A stretch of DNA of 16,821 nucleotides from Candidatus Calditenuaceae archaeon (GTDB taxonomy: Archaea; Thermoproteota; Nitrososphaeria_A; Caldarchaeales; Calditenuaceae), in the NCBI GenBank assembly GCA_025058225.1, contig JANXEE010000002.1:1-16821 (forward strand), read 5' to 3'. Position 1 is the first letter of the stretch, and every line of letters starts with the position of its first letter. The notes under the pieces are model-generated. The model was not told where the DNA came from. It worked only from the letters and a program-made list of their open reading frames with translations, and did no database searches. Positions 405 to 16,768 of the stretch are shown here, piece by piece. The translations under genes were made by a program, and so were the position numbers.

Positions 405-929
405 TCAGGCCACGTAGGTGAGGTTCTCGTCGTCGAAGTGCCTCACGAGCCTCGGCTCGGATGGTCCGATCTGACCTTGGTTCAGCAGGGCCCTCACCTC
501 ATCCTCACCGAGGGGTTTTACGGCGAACCTGAAGGCCGGATGGTCGTCTCCGAACTCGGACCTCGTTATCTCCATCACCAACCGACGGGTCTCAGATTCG
601 TCCACGTAGCCGAGCGAGTGGAGGTACTCGTGCAGCAGAACCGTGAACAGGTAGGACTTGAGTTCTGTTTGGGGCGCTCCCCGACCCACGAGCGCCGAGA
701 TCACCCTCCTGTTCAGGACGATGAAGTTGGTTCCGATGCCATGATATGCGAGGACGAAGGCCGGTTCGTCGGCGAGCACCAGCATCAGTCCCGCCCTCCT
801 GATGCCCAGCCTCCTCTCCACCACCCTCTTGACCAGCGCGAAGATGTCCCTGAAGTCCTGCGCCCTCTCAAGCTCCGATCTGGTGTCCACCGTCCAGCTT
901 TCCACCCGGCACCTCATAACCATTGACAC
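405..929 (-). CDS. Small soluble protein with a single HExxH motif (putative zinc metallopeptidase-like protein, family not recognised)
   Basis: Minus-strand ORF with possible starts GTG 929 or ATG 923. The only recognisable signature is LLHEYLHSLGYVDESE (HExxH plus downstream acidic residues). Plus-strand ORF 327-926 is its antisense shadow. Confidence 0.55.
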   Translation of the reverse strand: MSMVMRCRVESWTVDTRSELERAQDFRDIFALVKRVVERRLGIRRAGLMLVLADEPAFVLAYHGIGTNFIVLNRRVISALVGRGAPQTELKSYLFTVLLHEYLHSLGYVDESETRRLVMEITRSEFGDDHPAFRFAVKPLGEDEVRALLNQGQIGPSEPRLVRHFDDENLTYVA

Positions 930-6455: not shown

Positions 6456-7928
6456 TCACCCTGCGCTGGGGAAGGACAGGGCCCTCTCCAGCCATCCCTT
6501 CAGCTCTGACACGTGGACCCTGACCTGCTCCGTCGTGTCCCTGTCCCGGACCGTTACGGTTTCGTCCTTCAAAGTCTGGTAATCGATCGTAACGCAGTAG
6601 GGAACTCCGATCTCGTCGAGCATGTGATATCTCTTCCCGATCGTGTCCTTCGACTCGTAGGCCGCGTCGAACTCCGTCCTCAGAGACTCGTAGATGTCCC
6701 ACGCCTTCTCCGGGAGCCCGTCCTTCTCGACCAGAGGCAACACGGCCACCTCCACCGGCGCGAGGAACTTCGGGATCTTCAGGACCCTCCTCTTGGCCTC
6801 CCTGACGTAATTGAGCTCCATCAACACGTAGACGCTCCTGTCGACGCCCATCGAGAGCTCGAAGACGTGCGGGAGGACCTTCCTGTTGCGGTTGGGGACC
6901 ATGAGGTCCTTTCCGCTGACCCTCATGTGTCCAGAGAGGTCATAGTCGCCCCGATAGTTGCACGCCACCAGCTCCACCCATCCCAGGGAAGTCTGCACTT
7001 CCAGGTCCCAAGCTTCTTTAGCGTAGAAGGCCTTCTCGTCGTCGCTGAGCCTCCGGAGCCTGATCTTGGACCTCTCCACACCCAGAAGCTCGTAGAACCT
7101 CTGCATCAGGGCCAGGTAGTAACCCGGAAGCCAGTGGGAGACCAGACCGGTCCTCAGGGCCTCCTCGACGGAGACCTCCCTGAAGTCGCCGCGCTCGCCG
7201 CCGAACCTCAGCCTGTAATCCTTTAGCCTCCTCCACCTGATGGGGTCGACGTCGTCCTCGGGATCGAAGAAGACCTCGACCTCCGCCTGATAGAACTCCC
7301 TGAGCCTTAGAAGGCTCTGCCTAGGCGAGATCTCGTTCCTGAAGCTCTTACCGAACTGACAGAGAGGCAACGGCAGTTTGGACCAGCCGATCTTGTAGGT
7401 CCTCAGGAAGTCGACGAAGAGCGATTGGCACGTCTCAGGCCTGAGGTAGGCCTCCTCGCCCTCACCGCCGACGTTGACCCTGAACATCATATTGAACCTC
7501 TCGACGCTGTCGAGCTCACCGCCGCATCGCTGACACCTGATGCCGTGCTCGAGGATGAGCGCGTAGATCTCCTCGTCCCTGAGCCTCTCCGGCACGATCT
7601 TGCCCGTGAACTCCTGGACCAGCCTGTCAGCCCTGTAAGTCGCTCTGCATGACTTGCATCTCGTCACCGGATCCGCGAACGACGCCAAGTGCCCCGATGC
7701 CACGAAGACCTTCTTCGCCATGATCACAGAGCCGTCGAGCTCCACCATGCCGTCGTATCTGACGACGTAGCGCCTCCACGCCTCCACGAACCTGTTCCTC
7801 AGCCCCAAGCCCAAGGGGCCGTAGTCCCAGAACCCCGCGGGCGCGTCGTCGTAGATCTCGCATGCCGGGAAGAAGAAGCCCCTCTTCAGGGAGAGGTCGA
7901 TCAGTTCGTCATAGACCCTGCCGGACAT
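6456..7928 (-). CDS. glyS: Glycyl-tRNA synthetase, archaeal/eukaryotic-type class II
   Basis: N-terminal RGFFFPACEIY...GFWDYGPLG, motif 2 FRNEISPR, motif 3 region SMGVDR, and C-terminal anticodon-binding domain (APVEVAVLPL...GKRYHMLDEIGVPYCVTID). ATG 7928. Confidence 0.95.
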   Translation of the reverse strand: MSGRVYDELIDLSLKRGFFFPACEIYDDAPAGFWDYGPLGLGLRNRFVEAWRRYVVRYDGMVELDGSVIMAKKVFVASGHLASFADPVTRCKSCRATYRADRLVQEFTGKIVPERLRDEEIYALILEHGIRCQRCGGELDSVERFNMMFRVNVGGEGEEAYLRPETCQSLFVDFLRTYKIGWSKLPLPLCQFGKSFRNEISPRQSLLRLREFYQAEVEVFFDPEDDVDPIRWRRLKDYRLRFGGERGDFREVSVEEALRTGLVSHWLPGYYLALMQRFYELLGVERSKIRLRRLSDDEKAFYAKEAWDLEVQTSLGWVELVACNYRGDYDLSGHMRVSGKDLMVPNRNRKVLPHVFELSMGVDRSVYVLMELNYVREAKRRVLKIPKFLAPVEVAVLPLVEKDGLPEKAWDIYESLRTEFDAAYESKDTIGKRYHMLDEIGVPYCVTIDYQTLKDETVTVRDRDTTEQVRVHVSELKGWLERALSFPSAG

Positions 7929-7952
7929 GTCCCAGATCGATCCGTCGGCACG

Positions 7953-7963
7953 TGATAGAAAAA
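7953..7963 (-). promoter_or_regulatory. TTTTTCTATCA element: oligo-T terminator for the RING-like gene and/or TATA-like box for glyS
   Basis: The minus strand reads TGA-TGGGTTTTTCTATCACG. The T5 run begins 4 nt after the stop of the 7968-8804 gene, and its centre lies about 27-30 nt upstream of the glyS ATG (7928), which fits a near-leaderless glyS mRNA. Confidence 0.4.
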
Positions 7964-7967
7964 CCCA

Positions 7968-8804
7968 TCAGGAGAGCTGGGTACCGCAGATTGGGCACTT
8001 GCCTCCTATGTCCCTCCAGGTCTCGATGCACTCCCTGTGCATCGGGGCACCGCATCCCGCGCAGTTCCTCATCGAACCCGGTTGTATTATGTCGCCACAT
8101 ATGGAGCACTCGGTCCTCGAGCTGGGCGTCTGGGTCTGGGGGATCTGGGGGGGCTGAGGGATCCTCTGTGTGACTTCTGGAGGTGCCAGTCTCACAGCGG
8201 TCGTGGATTGTTCCTCTGACTCCTCCTTCAGGAGCTCGTCGAACATCTCCTCTTCAGTAGTGGGTACCGGTGAAGAGATGGCTGCTCCCTGTAATGCCTC
8301 CACCTCCATCGGTTGATACGGCTGATAGGATGAGGGCTGAGACTCCGGACGAAGTGCGACCAACCCTATCATGGTGGATATTGCACCACCTCCGGCCATA
8401 GCGACGCCGGTGAAGAGCGCGGCTATCGCACCGACTTCGGTCCTGAACTCGACCTGTAGTGAGGGGAGCAGGTAGAGGACGGAGTACAGCGGAGAGAGGA
8501 TCGCCAGTGCGGCCCCACCCAGCGCGAAGGCCGGGACCGCGAACCTGAGTATTCTTATGCTGGTTGAGACCGATGCAAGCACGCCTGAGGCGCCGGCGAG
8601 CCCGGCCGCGATCAAGGAGAACATGAAACTGGAGGGGAGATCATAACCCTGGACGCCCTCGGCCATCACGTTGTCGTGAAGCAGGGAGACCCAGTCCAGA
8701 AGAAGCGTGAGGACGTGGACCGCACCGAGAACAGATATCAGAGAGCCGACCCTTATCAATCTGACTAATGCGTCCCTAACATCTGTACCCGTTACGAGCA
8801 TCAC
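7968..8804 (-). CDS. Polytopic membrane protein with low-complexity linker and C-terminal C4HC3 RING/PHD-like zinc finger
   Basis: About 4 hydrophobic helices in the N-terminal 150 aa, then an acidic and P/Q/S/T-rich linker. The C-terminus reads CSIC-x11-CAGC-x4-H-x2-C-x10-CPIC (nt 7971-8108). Start GTG 8804 or ATG 8801, with a strong TATA (TTATATAA) about 30 nt upstream. Confidence 0.7.
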   Translation of the reverse strand: MMLVTGTDVRDALVRLIRVGSLISVLGAVHVLTLLLDWVSLLHDNVMAEGVQGYDLPSSFMFSLIAAGLAGASGVLASVSTSIRILRFAVPAFALGGAALAILSPLYSVLYLLPSLQVEFRTEVGAIAALFTGVAMAGGGAISTMIGLVALRPESQPSSYQPYQPMEVEALQGAAISSPVPTTEEEMFDELLKEESEEQSTTAVRLAPPEVTQRIPQPPQIPQTQTPSSRTECSICGDIIQPGSMRNCAGCGAPMHRECIETWRDIGGKCPICGTQLS

Positions 8805-8833
8805 TGACCGCCTAGGTCTTGCCGTTCCCCATG

Positions 8834-8841
8834 TTATATAA
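8834..8841 (-). promoter_or_regulatory. TATA box (TTATATAA) for the membrane RING-like gene
   Basis: This is the best TATA match in the window. It lies in the 90-nt gap after the lrp stop and is centred about 34-37 nt upstream of the GTG 8804 / ATG 8801 starts. Confidence 0.5.
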
Positions 8842-8894
8842 GGATGTTGATCGACTCACGGACGAAACTCATCCGCGTCGGATCTCCACCGGCG

Positions 8895-9344
8895 TCAGGG
8901 CTGTTCCTTCACCGTCTCGAAGACGAAACACGTCTCGGTCTTGCTGACGTTCTTCAAGGGCCTCAGCCTGTCGATGACGAGCTTACCGACGTCCTCGACC
9001 GAGGAACCTCTGACCTTCAGTATCATGTCCCACTGGCCGCTGACCAAGTGCACCTCATACACTTCGGAGAGTTTGGCGATCTGTGCGGCGAGCTCGCGCT
9101 GAGAGACGTCCATCGTCGGCGCGAAGGAGACCAACACGAAGGCCGTGGTCCCGTTGCCGATCTTCGCGTAGTCCGGTATCACGGTGAAGGACTTGATGTA
9201 GCCCTCCTCGATCAACTTCTTGACCCTCTCTTGGACGGTGGTCCTCGGCAGGTTGAGCTCGCTGGCCAGGTCCGTGAAGGTCTTCCTCGCGTCCCTTCTC
9301 AGCGCCTCCAGGATCCTGAGGTCCCTCTCGTCCGGCGACGTCAC
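8895..9344 (-). CDS. Lrp/AsnC-family transcriptional regulator
   Basis: N-terminal wHTH (DLRILEALRRDARKTFTDLASELNLPRTTVQERVKKLIEEGYI) plus a C-terminal RAM/ligand domain (AFVLVSF...VYEVHLVSGQWDMILKV). GTG start at 9344. Confidence 0.9.
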   Translation of the reverse strand: MTSPDERDLRILEALRRDARKTFTDLASELNLPRTTVQERVKKLIEEGYIKSFTVIPDYAKIGNGTTAFVLVSFAPTMDVSQRELAAQIAKLSEVYEVHLVSGQWDMILKVRGSSVEDVGKLVIDRLRPLKNVSKTETCFVFETVKEQP

Positions 9345-9446
9345 AAAATTCTGTCCACCTACCCGTTATTTAGGGAGGGTAGATAGCCAATCAACTAACT
9401 ATAAATTAGGCAAGTTTTTATTCCGAGCGGAAATTAATCTGAAGAG
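9345..9446. promoter_or_regulatory. AT-rich divergent promoter region between lrp (-) and the HMGCS-thiolase-DUF35 operon (+)
   Basis: This is the only markedly AT-rich stretch in the window. TATA-like boxes face both directions: minus CCCTAAATAACGGG at 9362-9375, plus CTATAAATTA at 9399-9408 and TTTTTATT at 9415-9422. The inverted repeat CTACCC (9359-9364) / GGGTAG (9377-9382) brackets the lrp-side TATA. Confidence 0.5.
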
Positions 9447-10496
9447 TTGGCGAGGATAAGGAACGTAGCGATCCTAGGGTACGGAGGATATGTCCCGAGG
9501 CTGAGGATCAAGGCGACCGAGATAGCGAGGATATGGGGGAGGGAGGAGGACGCGCTGCCGGTCAGGGAGAAGTCGGTCAACGAGCTCGACGAGGACGCCA
9601 TAACGATGGCCGTGGAGGCGGCCAAGTACGCTATGAGGAGGGCCGGCATAGATCCCTCAGAGATAGGCGCGGTCAACGTGGGCTCCGAGTCGCATCCCTA
9701 CGCGGTCAAGCCGTCGGGAACCGTGGTCGCCGAGGCGCTGGGCATACCGCCGAACTTCCTCGCGGCGGACTTGGAGTTCGCGTGCAAGGCCGGGACTGAG
9801 TCCCTCCAGATGATCTCCGGACTGGTCTCGGCGGGCATCATAAAGGCAGGTCTGGCGATCGGGGCCGACACGGCTCAGGGGAGGCCGGGGGACGCGCTTG
9901 AGTTCACAGCTGCGGCCGGTGCGGCGGCCCTAGTCGTCGGTAGGCCCGGAAACGGTGAGGTCGCGTCCATCGAGTACGCCCGGAGCTACGTGACCGACAC
10001 ACCGGACTTCTGGAGGAGGGCCCACGAGCGTTATCCCTCGCATACGTTCAGGTTCACAGGTGAACCGGCCTACTTCCATCACACGCTCTCAGCGGTTAAG
10101 GGGTTGTTGGAGGAGGCGGGGCTGAAGGTCGCGGACGTGGACTACTTCATCTTCCATCAGCCCAACTACAAGTTTCCGCTCGCGGCCGCGAAGGTCCTCC
10201 AGATTCCTAAGGAGAAGGTGGAGCAGGGAGTCGTGACCCACCTCATCGGCAACACTTACGCCGCGAGCTCTCTGATGGGGTTGGTGAGGGTGCTGGACGT
10301 GGCGAGGCCTGGCCAGCTGATCGTCCTCACGTCCTTCGGCTCCGGTGCTGGAAGCGACTCCTTCCTCATCGAGACCAAGGAGGGGTTGCCTGAAAAGAGG
10401 GCCAAAGCTCCGTTGCTGGACGCGTTGATCAGCAGGGCGAAGTACGTCGATTATGCGACCTATCTTAGGCACAGGGACAAGATACGCGGTGCCTGA
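9447..10496 (+). CDS. Hydroxymethylglutaryl-CoA synthase (archaeal type)
   Basis: N-terminal ILGYGGYVPRLRI, catalytic Cys context LEFACKAGT, His context FIFHQPN, and GNTYAASSL. TTG 9447 is the only in-frame start before the conserved N-terminus. Confidence 0.9.
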   Translation: MARIRNVAILGYGGYVPRLRIKATEIARIWGREEDALPVREKSVNELDEDAITMAVEAAKYAMRRAGIDPSEIGAVNVGSESHPYAVKPSGTVVAEALGIPPNFLAADLEFACKAGTESLQMISGLVSAGIIKAGLAIGADTAQGRPGDALEFTAAAGAAALVVGRPGNGEVASIEYARSYVTDTPDFWRRAHERYPSHTFRFTGEPAYFHHTLSAVKGLLEEAGLKVADVDYFIFHQPNYKFPLAAAKVLQIPKEKVEQGVVTHLIGNTYAASSLMGLVRVLDVARPGQLIVLTSFGSGAGSDSFLIETKEGLPEKRAKAPLLDALISRAKYVDYATYLRHRDKIRGA

Positions 10497-12802: not shown

Positions 12803-12903
12803 CGAAGGTGCCGATCGCTCTCCTGACCACCGTTATGGTCGGCGACTCAAACCGGTCATCACGACGGAAGAAGGTTCAAGAAATCCATAGGGAGATGAGA
12901 AAC

Positions 12904-12996
12904 GGGCCCGTGGCCTAGCCTGGACAGGGCGCCGACCGCAAGAGGGGCGCATGCCTCCGGAGCCGGAAGTCGCGGGTTCGAATCCCGCCGGGCCCG
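12904..12996 (+). tRNA. tRNA-Arg (anticodon CCG) interrupted by an 18-nt intron at position 29/30
   Basis: Hand-folded cloverleaf: acceptor GGGCCCG/CGGGCCC, D arm GCCT-AGCCTGGACA-GGGC, T arm GCGGG-TTCGAAT-CCCGC, discriminator G. Removing 12935-12952 gives the anticodon arm CCGGC-CTCCGGA-GCCGG with U33 and anticodon CCG (12957-12959). No CCA is encoded. Confidence 0.85.
12935..12952 (+). other. tRNA intron (ACCGCAAGAGGGGCGCAT) at non-canonical position 29/30 with hBHBh' splicing motif
   Basis: A central 4-bp helix forms as G24C25G26C27 paired with intron G13C14G15C16. It is flanked by two 3-nt bulges (C28 G29 | A and A U | G30), with each splice site after the second bulge nucleotide, as in the canonical archaeal BHB. 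The outer helices are A21G22G23:C31C32U33 and intron C2C3:G11G12. Confidence 0.7.
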
Positions 12997-13041
12997 ATAC
13001 GGTATCCGGTATGATTGAACCGGAGGGGAGGAGAGGGGCTG

Positions 13042-15381: not shown

Positions 15382-16098
15382 TCACATGACCCCCGGCTGC
15401 CCCCTCCTCCAGGCACTCCTCCTGAGGGCCCTTTCGGCCTTGAGCCTCGCTATCTCCTCGTCGAGCTCGCGGAGGTCCAGCTTCACTTGAACGATGTCGG
15501 AGAGAATCCGGAGAACTGCCCTCGCAGCGCCGGGCTGCCTGACTCTCGGGTCGTCTATCTCACCTAACAAGCACAATCCCTCCATCTGTCGCTCCATCGC
15601 GAGTCCGTGTATGAGGCCGTTGAACCCGGTGATGTAGCCCTCGTCTGAAAGAGGCACCGCGCCCGCCCTCTCGGCGACCTCGCAAAACCTATCGGACGTC
15701 GCGGCGTAGAAGACCCTGGGGTCCTCGAGCCGGGACTCACCTGTGTGCGCAGCACCTAGGGAGATCACGGTGTCCACACCAACCGACTGGGCCAGGTCCA
15801 GCACCCTCTCGCAGAGCTCGAAAAGGGCCGTGCTCTCCGGAGGCTGATAGCTTCCCGTGAAAACGACGAAGTCGTATCCGTCGCGCCCGAGCAACTTGTA
15901 CCAGCCCCTTTCGAAGGTTATAGTGCGACCGGTGTGCACCACGAAGGGTGGCCACTCGCCGGTGGCCGCTGCGAGTTCCTCAAGTCCGCAGCATTTGACG
16001 AGGTGTTCCATCGCTATGCCGGCGACGTTGCCCATGTCAGGGAGGGCAGCTATCAACCTCCTGGTCCTCGGGATGACACCCCTCACCCTGAACTCCAT
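15382..16098 (-). CDS. PAC2-family protein (archaeal proteasome-assembly-chaperone-like, COG1938-type)
   Basis: N-terminal LIAALPDMGNVAGIAMEHLV (family G-x-G-x-V-G-type loop), then FVVFTGSYQP and VDTVISLGAA segments typical of the PAC2/PbaA-PbaB fold. The C-terminus is coiled-coil-like and has no HbYX tail. ATG 16098. Confidence 0.7.
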   Translation of the reverse strand: MEFRVRGVIPRTRRLIAALPDMGNVAGIAMEHLVKCCGLEELAAATGEWPPFVVHTGRTITFERGWYKLLGRDGYDFVVFTGSYQPPESTALFELCERVLDLAQSVGVDTVISLGAAHTGESRLEDPRVFYAATSDRFCEVAERAGAVPLSDEGYITGFNGLIHGLAMERQMEGLCLLGEIDDPRVRQPGAARAVLRILSDIVQVKLDLRELDEEIARLKAERALRRSAWRRGQPGVM

Positions 16099-16652: not shown

Positions 16653-16681
16653 GTCCATACATCGGAAGCTCGGCGGTGGAG

Positions 16682-16753
16682 GCCCCGGTAGCTCAGCGGT
16701 AGAGCGCCGGCCTCGTAAGCCGGTGGTCGAGGGTTCGAATCCCTCCCGGGGCT
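16682..16753 (+). tRNA. tRNA-Thr (anticodon CGU), no intron, no encoded CCA
   Basis: Hand-folded cloverleaf: acceptor GCCCCGG/CCGGGGC, D arm GCTC-AGCGGTA-GAGC, anticodon arm CCGGC-CTCGTAA-GCCGG, variable TGGTC, T arm GAGGG-TTCGAAT-CCCTC, discriminator U. Confidence 0.9.
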
Positions 16754-16768
16754 ACGGTCGGGTAGCCC

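Follow-up and report, generated by a model that had tools for sequence, protein, structure and literature searches.

A four-helix membrane protein with a C-terminal RING finger as a probable ubiquitin ligase or E2-recruiting adaptor of Caldarchaeales

We analyzed a 16,821-nucleotide stretch of archaeal DNA (contig JANXEE010000002.1 of assembly GCA_025058225.1, Candidatus Calditenuaceae archaeon), referred to as the window, and focused on a minus-strand gene at 7968..8801 that encodes a 277-amino-acid protein with four predicted transmembrane (TM) helices, a long linker, and a C-terminal RING finger. Our findings suggest that this gene, referred to as the TM-RING gene, probably encodes a membrane-tethered RING-type ubiquitin ligase (E3), or at least an adaptor that recruits the ubiquitin-conjugating enzyme (E2), of the ubiquitin system of the Caldarchaeales (Aigarchaeota). 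We infer E2 binding, ligase activity, and the substrates and their fate from the evidence set out below. By sequence comparison, the protein is a member of a Caldarchaeales family in which a homologous four-helix membrane domain is joined to a C-terminal RING of the type found in srfp, the soluble RING protein of the archaeal ubiquitin operon, and in which the gene lies beside that for glycyl-tRNA synthetase (GlyRS).

The RING finger (7986..8108, minus strand) was delimited using Pfam zf-RING_2, sequence matches in the PDB, AlphaFold, and Foldseek. It lies in the last 46 residues of the protein and reads CSIC-x11-CAGC-x4-H-x2-C-x10-CPIC, giving the spacing C-x2-C-x11-C-x2-C-x4-H-x2-C-x10-C-x2-C with C232, C235, C247, C250, H255, C258, C269, and C272 as ligands. 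An earlier sequence-only reading of the stretch had proposed a C4HC3 cross-brace RING rather than a zinc ribbon, and this proposal was supported by both profile and fold searches. The zf-RING_2 profile (PF13639) scored 30.0 bits on the whole protein and 35.2 bits on the isolated domain against a gathering cut-off of 27.3, whereas the scores of PHD (13.0 and 21.2 bits; cut-off 24), RINGv (7.2 bits; cut-off 21.6), DZR (double zinc ribbon), and Zn_ribbon_3 all fell under their own Pfam cut-offs. The C-x2-C-x4-H spacing of the finger is also unlike the C-x-C-x(5-7)-H of RINGv. The best sequence matches among solved structures were the RING-H2 domains of Arkadia, RNF165, EL5, gp78, and RNF24, and the residues of the RING-H2-like core that the sequence-only reading had recognized (H-x2-C-I-x2-W followed by C-P-x-C) are conserved in the family. 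The finger does not match the RING-H2 (C3H2C3) subclass itself, given that C247-x2-C250 is followed by x4-H255 and that the canonical His-4 position is an Ala in the alignment with Arkadia; the place of the canonical His-4 is taken by an additional Cys located three residues upstream of ligand 3, producing the C4HC3 set. The AlphaFold model of the isolated finger (mean predicted local distance difference test [pLDDT] score of 89.8) has the beta-beta-alpha core of a RING, comprising two strands (18-20 and 27-29) and one helix (30-38). When this model was compared to the PDB using Foldseek, the top 50 matches were all RING E3 domains (EL5, RNF165, RNF38, Arkadia, HRD1, gp78, RING1B, TRAF6, and others), with template-modeling scores of 0.6-0.74 and root-mean-square deviations of ~2-3 Å over ~50 residues.

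We considered that the finger might form no cross-brace at all and could instead consist of two independent sequential zinc ribbons or be a PHD-type reader finger, given that DZR, Zn_ribbon_3, and PHD all gave weak matches and that the ligand order and spacing also fit the PHD C4HC3 formula (C-x2-C-x4-H-x2-C). However, these matches were all below their gathering cut-offs, whereas zf-RING_2 passed its own, and the predicted model has the RING core. The Foldseek top 50 contained neither a zinc-ribbon domain nor a stand-alone PHD reader finger, the sole PHD-named entry being PHF7 in a complex with the E2 UBE2D2. In addition, the Trp of the window finger stands four residues after the sixth ligand (C6+4), as it does in RINGs, and not two residues before the seventh as in PHD fingers, where the window finger has a Gly in place of an aromatic residue. 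We therefore regard a ribbon or PHD fold as very improbable. Prok-RING_1 (PF14446; cut-off 29.1) gave 24.0 bits on the whole protein, below the cut-off, and 30.8 bits on the isolated domain, above it, with only profile positions 5-36 of 54 aligned. This partial match spans two thirds of the profile from its start (C-x2-C ... C-x2-C-G-x-P-x-H-x2-C), whereas the C-terminal third of the window finger (W-x6-C-P-x-C) resembles eukaryotic RING-H2 domains. Bacterial members of Prok-RING_1 carry TM helices and occur near genes of ubiquitin-like systems. A search of NCBIfam returned nothing meaningful.

The closest functional precedent for the window finger comes from Candidatus Caldiarchaeum subterraneum, the source of the first eukaryote-type operon of ubiquitin, ubiquitin-activating enzyme (E1), E2, and RING genes (Nunoura 2011). 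The RING protein of this operon, srfp (CSUB_C1477), carries the motif C-X2-C-X11-C-X2-C-X4-H-X2-C-X10-C-X2-C (Nunoura et al.), and the eight-ligand spacing of the window finger is identical to it; among the srfp domains that we collected, the first spacer was 11 or 12 residues long. Displaced third and fourth ligands (C3/H4) and an extra Cys have been remarked on in srfp as well (Hennell James et al. 2017), and C4HC3 has been described as the typical prokaryotic RING configuration. The srfp protein was needed for substrate ubiquitylation in vitro, a reaction that was abolished by the substitution I30Q and impaired by W58A and R69A (Hennell James et al. 2017). The C. subterraneum-type srfp in our collection (locus L074) has I30, W58, and R69 at exactly these numbers, and the corresponding residues in the window protein are I234, W262, and G273. 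BLASTP of the window finger against an operon srfp gave 40% identity (E 7e-10); the two proteins share the same pair of Pfam matches (zf-RING_2 and partial Prok-RING_1) and come from the same archaeal order. We regard the finger as a paralogue of that of srfp, the proven E3, and a membrane-tethered RING E3 or E2-recruiting adaptor of the Caldarchaeales ubiquitin system as the most economical reading. The two proteins also differ: srfp is soluble, ~75-90 amino acids long, encoded directly after E1 in the operon, and has an Arg or Lys after its last Cys, whereas the window protein has 277 residues, four TM helices, a long linker, a gene away from the operon, and a Gly at the linchpin position. 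The sequence-only reading had described prokaryotic RING-like domains as rare, with the well-known archaeal case being a small soluble protein encoded in an operon. The C4HC3 spacing is the same in srfp and the window protein and is not unusual in this lineage.

Conservation within the protein is highest in the finger. A word-indexed search found 11 intact homologues with 55-100% identity in metagenome-assembled genomes (MAGs) of Caldarchaeales/Nitrososphaeria, together with one frameshifted copy; when only the RING domain was used as the query, this type of search gave no match at E <= 1. Among 1.84 billion representatives, 13 proteins matched the family profile at E <= 1e-10, and these define a wider family with four TM helices, a linker, and a RING within 188-259 amino acids. 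The named matches were labeled Aigarchaeota, Nitrososphaerota, or Candidatus Pelearchaeum, and the complete four-helix-plus-RING family was seen only in sequences labeled Aigarchaeota/Caldarchaeales. All 11 intact close homologues and all 44 distinct RING domains of the family carry the eight ligands with identical spacing, including the His and the CPxC pair, conservation of which the sequence-only reading had named as a check. In an alignment of 15 members with identities down to 26%, the invariant residues of the finger were the eight ligands, I234, and P270. No other part of the protein is as well conserved as the RING, which has a mean column identity of 78%. The equivalents of the E2-contact residues in the window finger are I234 (C1+2), W262 (C6+4), and P270 (C7+1); across the 44 family domains, C1+2 is Ile, Leu, or Met in every case, C6+4 is Trp in 34 and Tyr in 8, and C7+1 is always Pro.

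Two sequences found in these searches depart from the family pattern. P0012 (244 amino acids, on a 12.8-kb JGI contig) is a family member whose C terminus runs out of frame just before the RING; the cause is either a frameshift error introduced by sequencing or assembly or decay of this gene copy. P0023 (282 amino acids, on a 4.9-kb NCBI contig from what is apparently an AT-rich organism) matched the profile weakly (E 2.4e-9) and has an N-terminal hydrophobic segment followed by two tandem C4HC3 fingers of the C-P-x-C-H-A-P-A-H type. Judged by this domain layout, P0023 is a different membrane-associated prokaryotic RING architecture.

The membrane domain (8352..8741, minus strand) was defined using hydropathy, charge distribution, AlphaFold helices, and invariant columns. 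About four hydrophobic helices had been expected from the translation, and we found hydrophobic segments at residues 21-41 (TM1, 8679-8741), 59-78 (TM2, 8568-8627), 87-112 (TM3, 8466-8543), and 123-150 (TM4, 8352-8435), all with 19-residue Kyte-Doolittle windows above 1.6, which are matched by AlphaFold helices at 6-49, 56-82, 86-116, and 122-149. Lys and Arg residues number three in the N terminus, none in loop 1, two in loop 2, and one in loop 3, a distribution that fits a predicted topology with both termini inside (N-in/C-in). This topology would place the C-terminal finger on the cytoplasmic side, where the sequence-only reading had suggested looking for it. Nine residues of the membrane domain (R14, H29, L33, W37, G52, S62, G70, S103, and G124) are invariant in the same 15 sequences, and the conserved features include a His, a Trp, and a Ser-Pro-x-Tyr motif, suggesting that the TM domain is more than a greasy anchor. 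The membrane domain had no Pfam family match. Fold matches to TARP/claudin-like four-helix proteins and to G-protein-coupled receptors were dismissed as meaningless given the pLDDT of 50-60 of this part of the model and E values above 0.1.

Between the membrane domain and the finger lies an acidic linker of ~77 residues (151-227; 8121..8351, minus strand) that is rich in Pro, Gln, Ser, and Thr, as the sequence-only reading had described. The linker varies in length and sequence across the family, is of low complexity, and is predicted to be disordered (pLDDT <50) apart from one helix. This helix (183-200 in the model) covers an acidic amphipathic motif, EEE[VM]F[DE]ELL[RK]xEE (8205..8258, minus strand), in which E183, E184, F187, E189, L191, and E194 are invariant in the Calditenuis-type clade.

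The partner and function of the window protein had been left open by the sequence-only reading, and a survey of ubiquitin-system genes now points to a partner system. As a query, we used the C. subterraneum E2-like sequence rebuilt from the supplement of a paper; it has the motif HPN-x8-V-C, with no Gly, and recovered 23 UQ_con homologues, one cluster of which contains a protein named from a Candidatus Calditenuis sp. Scanning one genome per species with an alignment of the collected E2s produced 73 loci, which were then searched with a RING pattern and with a hidden Markov model (HMM) for which only the membrane portion of the close-clade proteins was used. In 35 of the 73 loci, from Caldarchaeum, Wolframiiraptor, Terraquivivens, Geocrenenecus, HR01, and others, a same-strand open reading frame (ORF) of ~230 amino acids lies 1.2-1.5 kb downstream of srfp in the JAMM/ubiquitin/E2/E1/srfp block. 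This ORF combines the membrane domain (E 1e-10 to 1e-22 with the TM-only HMM, at positions ~10-142) with a C-terminal RING of the same spacing, and it belongs to a paralogous family that coexists with srfp in these 35 loci. The gene order is coiled-coil (minus), JAMM (minus), ubiquitin, E2, E1, srfp, small coiled-coil, coiled-coil (minus), TM-RING, and GlyRS, and the adjacency to the ubiquitin block has held across genera in which the TM domains share 26-31% identity. The pair formed by the TM-RING and GlyRS genes is common to the window and the sister-genus loci, and the block in Caldarchaeum also has a DUF35 gene and a homologue of Lrp just upstream of it.

In the Calditenuaceae, the ubiquitin genes are elsewhere, and the TM-RING gene stays with GlyRS behind an Lrp gene. 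The genomes that carry the gene also carry ubiquitin, E2, and E1: the Calditenuis MAG locus encodes a 78-amino-acid ubiquitin, a 166-amino-acid E2, a 412-amino-acid ThiF-type E1, and a Cys-free 188-amino-acid coiled-coil protein, with neither srfp nor an adjacent JAMM gene at this locus. The E2 retains the HPN motif, the catalytic Cys, and the RING-contacting Pro-Tyr of loop 4. E2 and TM-RING genes occur in the same assembly in JBCNVM (L021 and L003) and JANXEU (L023 and L016), P0015 (TM-RING) and L036 (E2) appear to share one 733,637-bp contig, and both genes are present in Candidatus Pelearchaeum maunauluense. None of the 18 Calditenuaceae-type loci encodes srfp, and no RING of any kind was found within ±5 kb of their E2 genes. 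The loss of srfp and, in Calditenuis, of the adjacent JAMM gene and the ubiquitin propeptide suggests a remodeled system.

Several variations in and around the ubiquitin operon were also observed. The operon-final Cys-free protein of 186-188 amino acids (L012:5788-6354, L011:7752-8315, and L022:6722-7282) has an N-terminal coiled coil and an alpha/beta domain, sits at the position occupied by srfp in other Caldarchaeales, and has no match in Pfam or PADLOC. Calditenuis ubiquitin (L012:3799-4035) ends in ...TRTVGG, with no propeptide and no adjacent JAMM gene, and the C. subterraneum-type ubiquitin (L074:4769-5032) has a 9-residue propeptide (TRTVGGYGEPIRRAA) and a divergent JAMM/Rpn11-like neighbor; in an intermediate group (L025-L035), JAMM is retained and srfp is missing. 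In several genera, the operon is flanked by genes for three coiled-coil proteins of ~260, 100, and 280-300 amino acids that gave generic coiled-coil matches only (in L074, 3194-3988 minus, 6907-7218 plus, and 7213-8121 minus; in L058, 3090-3872 minus, 7016-7324 plus, and 7321-8160 minus), one of which sits between the srfp and TM-RING genes. In L005-L010 (P0214-type loci), the order is ubiquitin-E2-E1-srfp followed by the coiled-coil genes and then a malic enzyme gene that replaces TM-RING and GlyRS, which indicates that the adjacency of the TM-RING gene has been broken more than once. PADLOC gave no match for the TM-RING protein, srfp, E2, or the 188-amino-acid operon protein, and only generic coiled-coil matches for the coiled-coil neighbors; a role in anti-phage defense is thus unsupported.

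We also considered that the window protein could be a membrane zinc-finger protein unrelated to ubiquitin, in which a generic treble-clef module that binds peptides or proteins is attached to a membrane sensor, a transporter accessory protein, or a protease partner, and the proximity to the ubiquitin operon is inherited. Consistent with this, the neighbors of the gene in the window are housekeeping genes (Lrp/AsnC, GlyRS, and mevalonate-pathway genes), adjacency to GlyRS is conserved as much as adjacency to the ubiquitin operon, the gene has its own TATA-like box, and the invariant polar residues of the TM domain suggest that it has a function of its own. It has also been argued that some prokaryotic RINGs act outside ubiquitin pathways. 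However, the finger shares its ligand spacing and its E2-contact residues with srfp, the proven E3, the family is confined, by the available names, to the one archaeal order with this ubiquitin system, and the adjacency to the ubiquitin block persists despite the extensive divergence of the TM domains. Taken together, these points make a ubiquitin-unrelated function quite unlikely.

The proposal that the window protein is a ligase or E2 adaptor must also be weighed against several observations that do not favor it. The window RING gene does not adjoin any ubiquitin-system gene in its own genome: as the sequence-only reading had noted for the window, no ubiquitin-like, E1, E2, or JAMM gene is present there, and none was found within ±10 kb on the source contig either. 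The assembly containing that contig (JAVQTC) was not among the species representatives scanned, so the co-occurrence with E2 rests on related assemblies. In the sister genera, the neighborhood is a conserved synteny broken by an opposite-strand gene and not an operon, and since the unrelated GlyRS and Lrp genes are conserved neighbors as well, inherited gene order may account for some of this linkage. The cross-brace (interleaved) ligation is inferred from the fold match of a zinc-free prediction, and the TM domain was modeled with low confidence (pLDDT 50-60). Ligase activity is known biochemically from the srfp of C. subterraneum only, so that activity in this family is suggested by analogy, and the Arg whose substitution impaired the srfp cascade (R69A) corresponds to G273 in the window protein. 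Finally, all 14 Calditenuaceae-type domains, including that of the window, lack a Lys or Arg in the first two residues of the tail.

This last feature was overlooked in the sequence-only reading. The last Cys of the window finger is followed by G273 in the tail GTQLS, with no Lys/Arg linchpin. In the set of 44 distinct fingers from the family, the position that follows the last Cys is occupied by Lys in 21 cases, by Gly in 20, by Gln in 2, and by Asn in 1, and a Lys or Arg occurs within the first two tail residues in 30 of the 44 family domains compared to 23 of 23 srfp domains. Because of the Gly at this position, activity in the Calditenuis-type clade may be weak, may be limited to mono-ubiquitylation, or may require a further element, for instance the acidic helix conserved in the linker. 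That the clade with an srfp-less operon is also the one lacking the linchpin argues against a simple take-over of the E3 role by the TM-RING protein and leaves room for an attenuated, mono-ubiquitylating, or regulatory role.

A possible explanation for this pattern is that the RING is non-catalytic, at least in the Calditenuis-type clade, and still docks E2, or some other partner, at the membrane, where the protein would serve as an anchor, a regulator, or a sequestering factor and not as a ligase that activates ubiquitin-charged E2. The Gly linchpin and the lack of a basic tail residue in all 14 Calditenuaceae-type domains, set against the Lys or Arg of every srfp, would agree with this, as would the effect of R69A on the srfp cascade and the loss from the operon of srfp and, in Calditenuis, of the adjacent JAMM gene and the ubiquitin propeptide. 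Conversely, conservation in the protein peaks in the finger, which keeps the Ile, Trp, and Pro of the E2 contact, the canonical Lys linchpin is present in about half of the domains of the family, and some natural RING E3s that lack a basic linchpin remain active. On balance, we consider a non-catalytic RING to be a serious but rather unlikely explanation. The natural variation between Lys and Gly at the linchpin within one family provides a built-in comparison for studying how RING activation evolved.

Returning to a membrane-tethered ligase or E2 adaptor as our preferred reading, we propose the following mechanism. The four TM helices, in the N-in/C-in orientation, would hold the protein in the cytoplasmic membrane, and the flexible, acidic tether of ~80 residues would present the C-terminal two-zinc cross-brace RING to the cytoplasm. 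The RING would then bind the UQ_con E2 of the lineage, charged with archaeal ubiquitin, via P270 and via I234 and W262, the counterparts of I30 and W58 in srfp. Transfer of ubiquitin would thereby be directed to membrane or membrane-proximal substrates, which could perhaps be selected by the conserved TM domain with its invariant His, Trp, and Ser-Pro-x-Tyr.

This arrangement of a TM anchor, a flexible region, and a cytoplasmic RING is also that of eukaryotic membrane RING E3s (ATL/EL5, Hrd1/gp78, RNF13/RNF24-type, and MARCH), and the RINGs of EL5, HRD1, gp78, RNF13, and RNF24 are among the best fold or sequence matches of the window finger. However, no homology between the membrane domains was detected, and the window finger is C4HC3 with C-x2-C as its second pair and not C3H2C3. 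The likeness is one of architecture and does not imply common descent of the whole protein. Ubiquitylation of membrane proteins is a hallmark of endoplasmic-reticulum-associated degradation, endocytosis, and ESCRT-mediated sorting in eukaryotes. We tentatively raise the possibility that the Caldarchaeales have a dedicated membrane-resident ubiquitin ligase that is a counterpart of Hrd1, ATL, and MARCH, that the tagging of membrane proteins with ubiquitin predates eukaryotes, and that in the srfp-less Calditenuaceae this protein is the principal or only RING partner of E2. If this were true, the tagging of membrane proteins would serve quality control or sorting. To our knowledge, studies of archaeal RING E3s have to date been confined to one small soluble protein, and we know of no natural substrates for it. 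The present family adds a second conserved RING family, anchored in the membrane and bearing the same finger, and in the Calditenuaceae no other RING was seen near either of the two loci. It thus points to the membrane as a place to seek substrates of archaeal ubiquitylation and makes testable the question of whether membrane proteins are ubiquitylated already in archaea.

RING fingers as such were already known from the Aigarchaeota. Up to nine zf-RING_2 proteins have been reported in one aigarchaeote (Grau-Bove et al.), and one or two RING/FYVE/PHD-type proteins per bin have been reported beside ubiquitin, E1, E2, and a deubiquitinating enzyme (Hua et al.). Our literature searches, which did not take in Burroughs et al. 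2011 on prokaryotic RING families, found no description of a transmembrane RING in the Aigarchaeota. Compared to the literature searched, what is new here is the membrane-anchored RING family, its adjacency to the ubiquitin operon, its pairing with GlyRS, and the srfp-less operon of the Calditenuaceae.

The gene model itself rests on the ORF list, the sequence, and identity to a database protein. The minus-strand ORF extends over 7968-8804, with its stop codon at 7968-7970, and translation likely starts at the ATG at 8801, one codon inside an alternative GTG at 8804. The 277-residue product is a 100% match to P0001, a protein from a Candidatus Calditenuis MAG (contig JAVQTC010000002.1, 313 kb) that NCBI had already named "RING finger protein." The strong TATA box reported in the sequence-only reading corresponds to a TATA-like element, CTTATATAAC (8833..8842, minus strand), ~37 nt upstream of the ATG, and its position is conserved in three orthologous loci (L001, L003, and L004). 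A T5 run at 7959..7963, four bases past the stop codon on the minus strand, is kept in L003 and is possibly an archaeal terminator signal.

Both immediate neighbors of the gene lie on the same strand. The Lrp/AsnC regulator gene (8895..9344, minus strand; assigned by Pfam) is directly upstream and is conserved in the Calditenuis-type clade, with synteny in L001, L003, L004, and L016. The GlyRS gene (6456..7928, minus strand; assigned by Pfam) begins 39 nt downstream and is a neighbor family-wide, always directly 3' of the TM-RING gene on the same strand. The pair occupies 7968-8801 (minus) and 6456-7928 (minus) in the window and 8171-8866 and 8878-10326 in the C. subterraneum-type locus L074, where the gap is 11 nt. 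Given the short gap and shared strand, co-transcription of the two genes is possible even though a T5 run follows the stop codon of the window gene.

The remainder of the window is ordinary archaeal chromosome with a GC content of ~60%. In addition to GlyRS and Lrp/AsnC, its genes include prefoldin beta, a DHH phosphoesterase, an ECF-type ABC transporter, homoserine dehydrogenase, an HMG-CoA synthase/thiolase/DUF35 trio, SUI1, a PAC2-family protein, and two tRNAs. The PAC2-family protein (15382-16098, minus strand; Pfam E 7.6e-34) belongs to a family whose members are annotated as proteasome assembly chaperone-like; 7 kb separate its gene from the RING gene, and the two show no evident linkage. 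A 174-amino-acid ORF (405-929, minus strand) contains an HExxH motif (HEYLH) but matches no Pfam family; L001 and L003 keep it as an unannotated gene beside prefoldin, and it may encode a small metalloprotease-like protein. The tRNAs are a 95-nt tRNA-Leu(aag) at 12903-12997 (plus strand), which scored a modest 41.9 bits in Rfam, and a tRNA-Thr(cgt) at 16681-16755 (plus strand). L003 carries an inserted MazE/PIN toxin-antitoxin pair close to its counterpart of this region.

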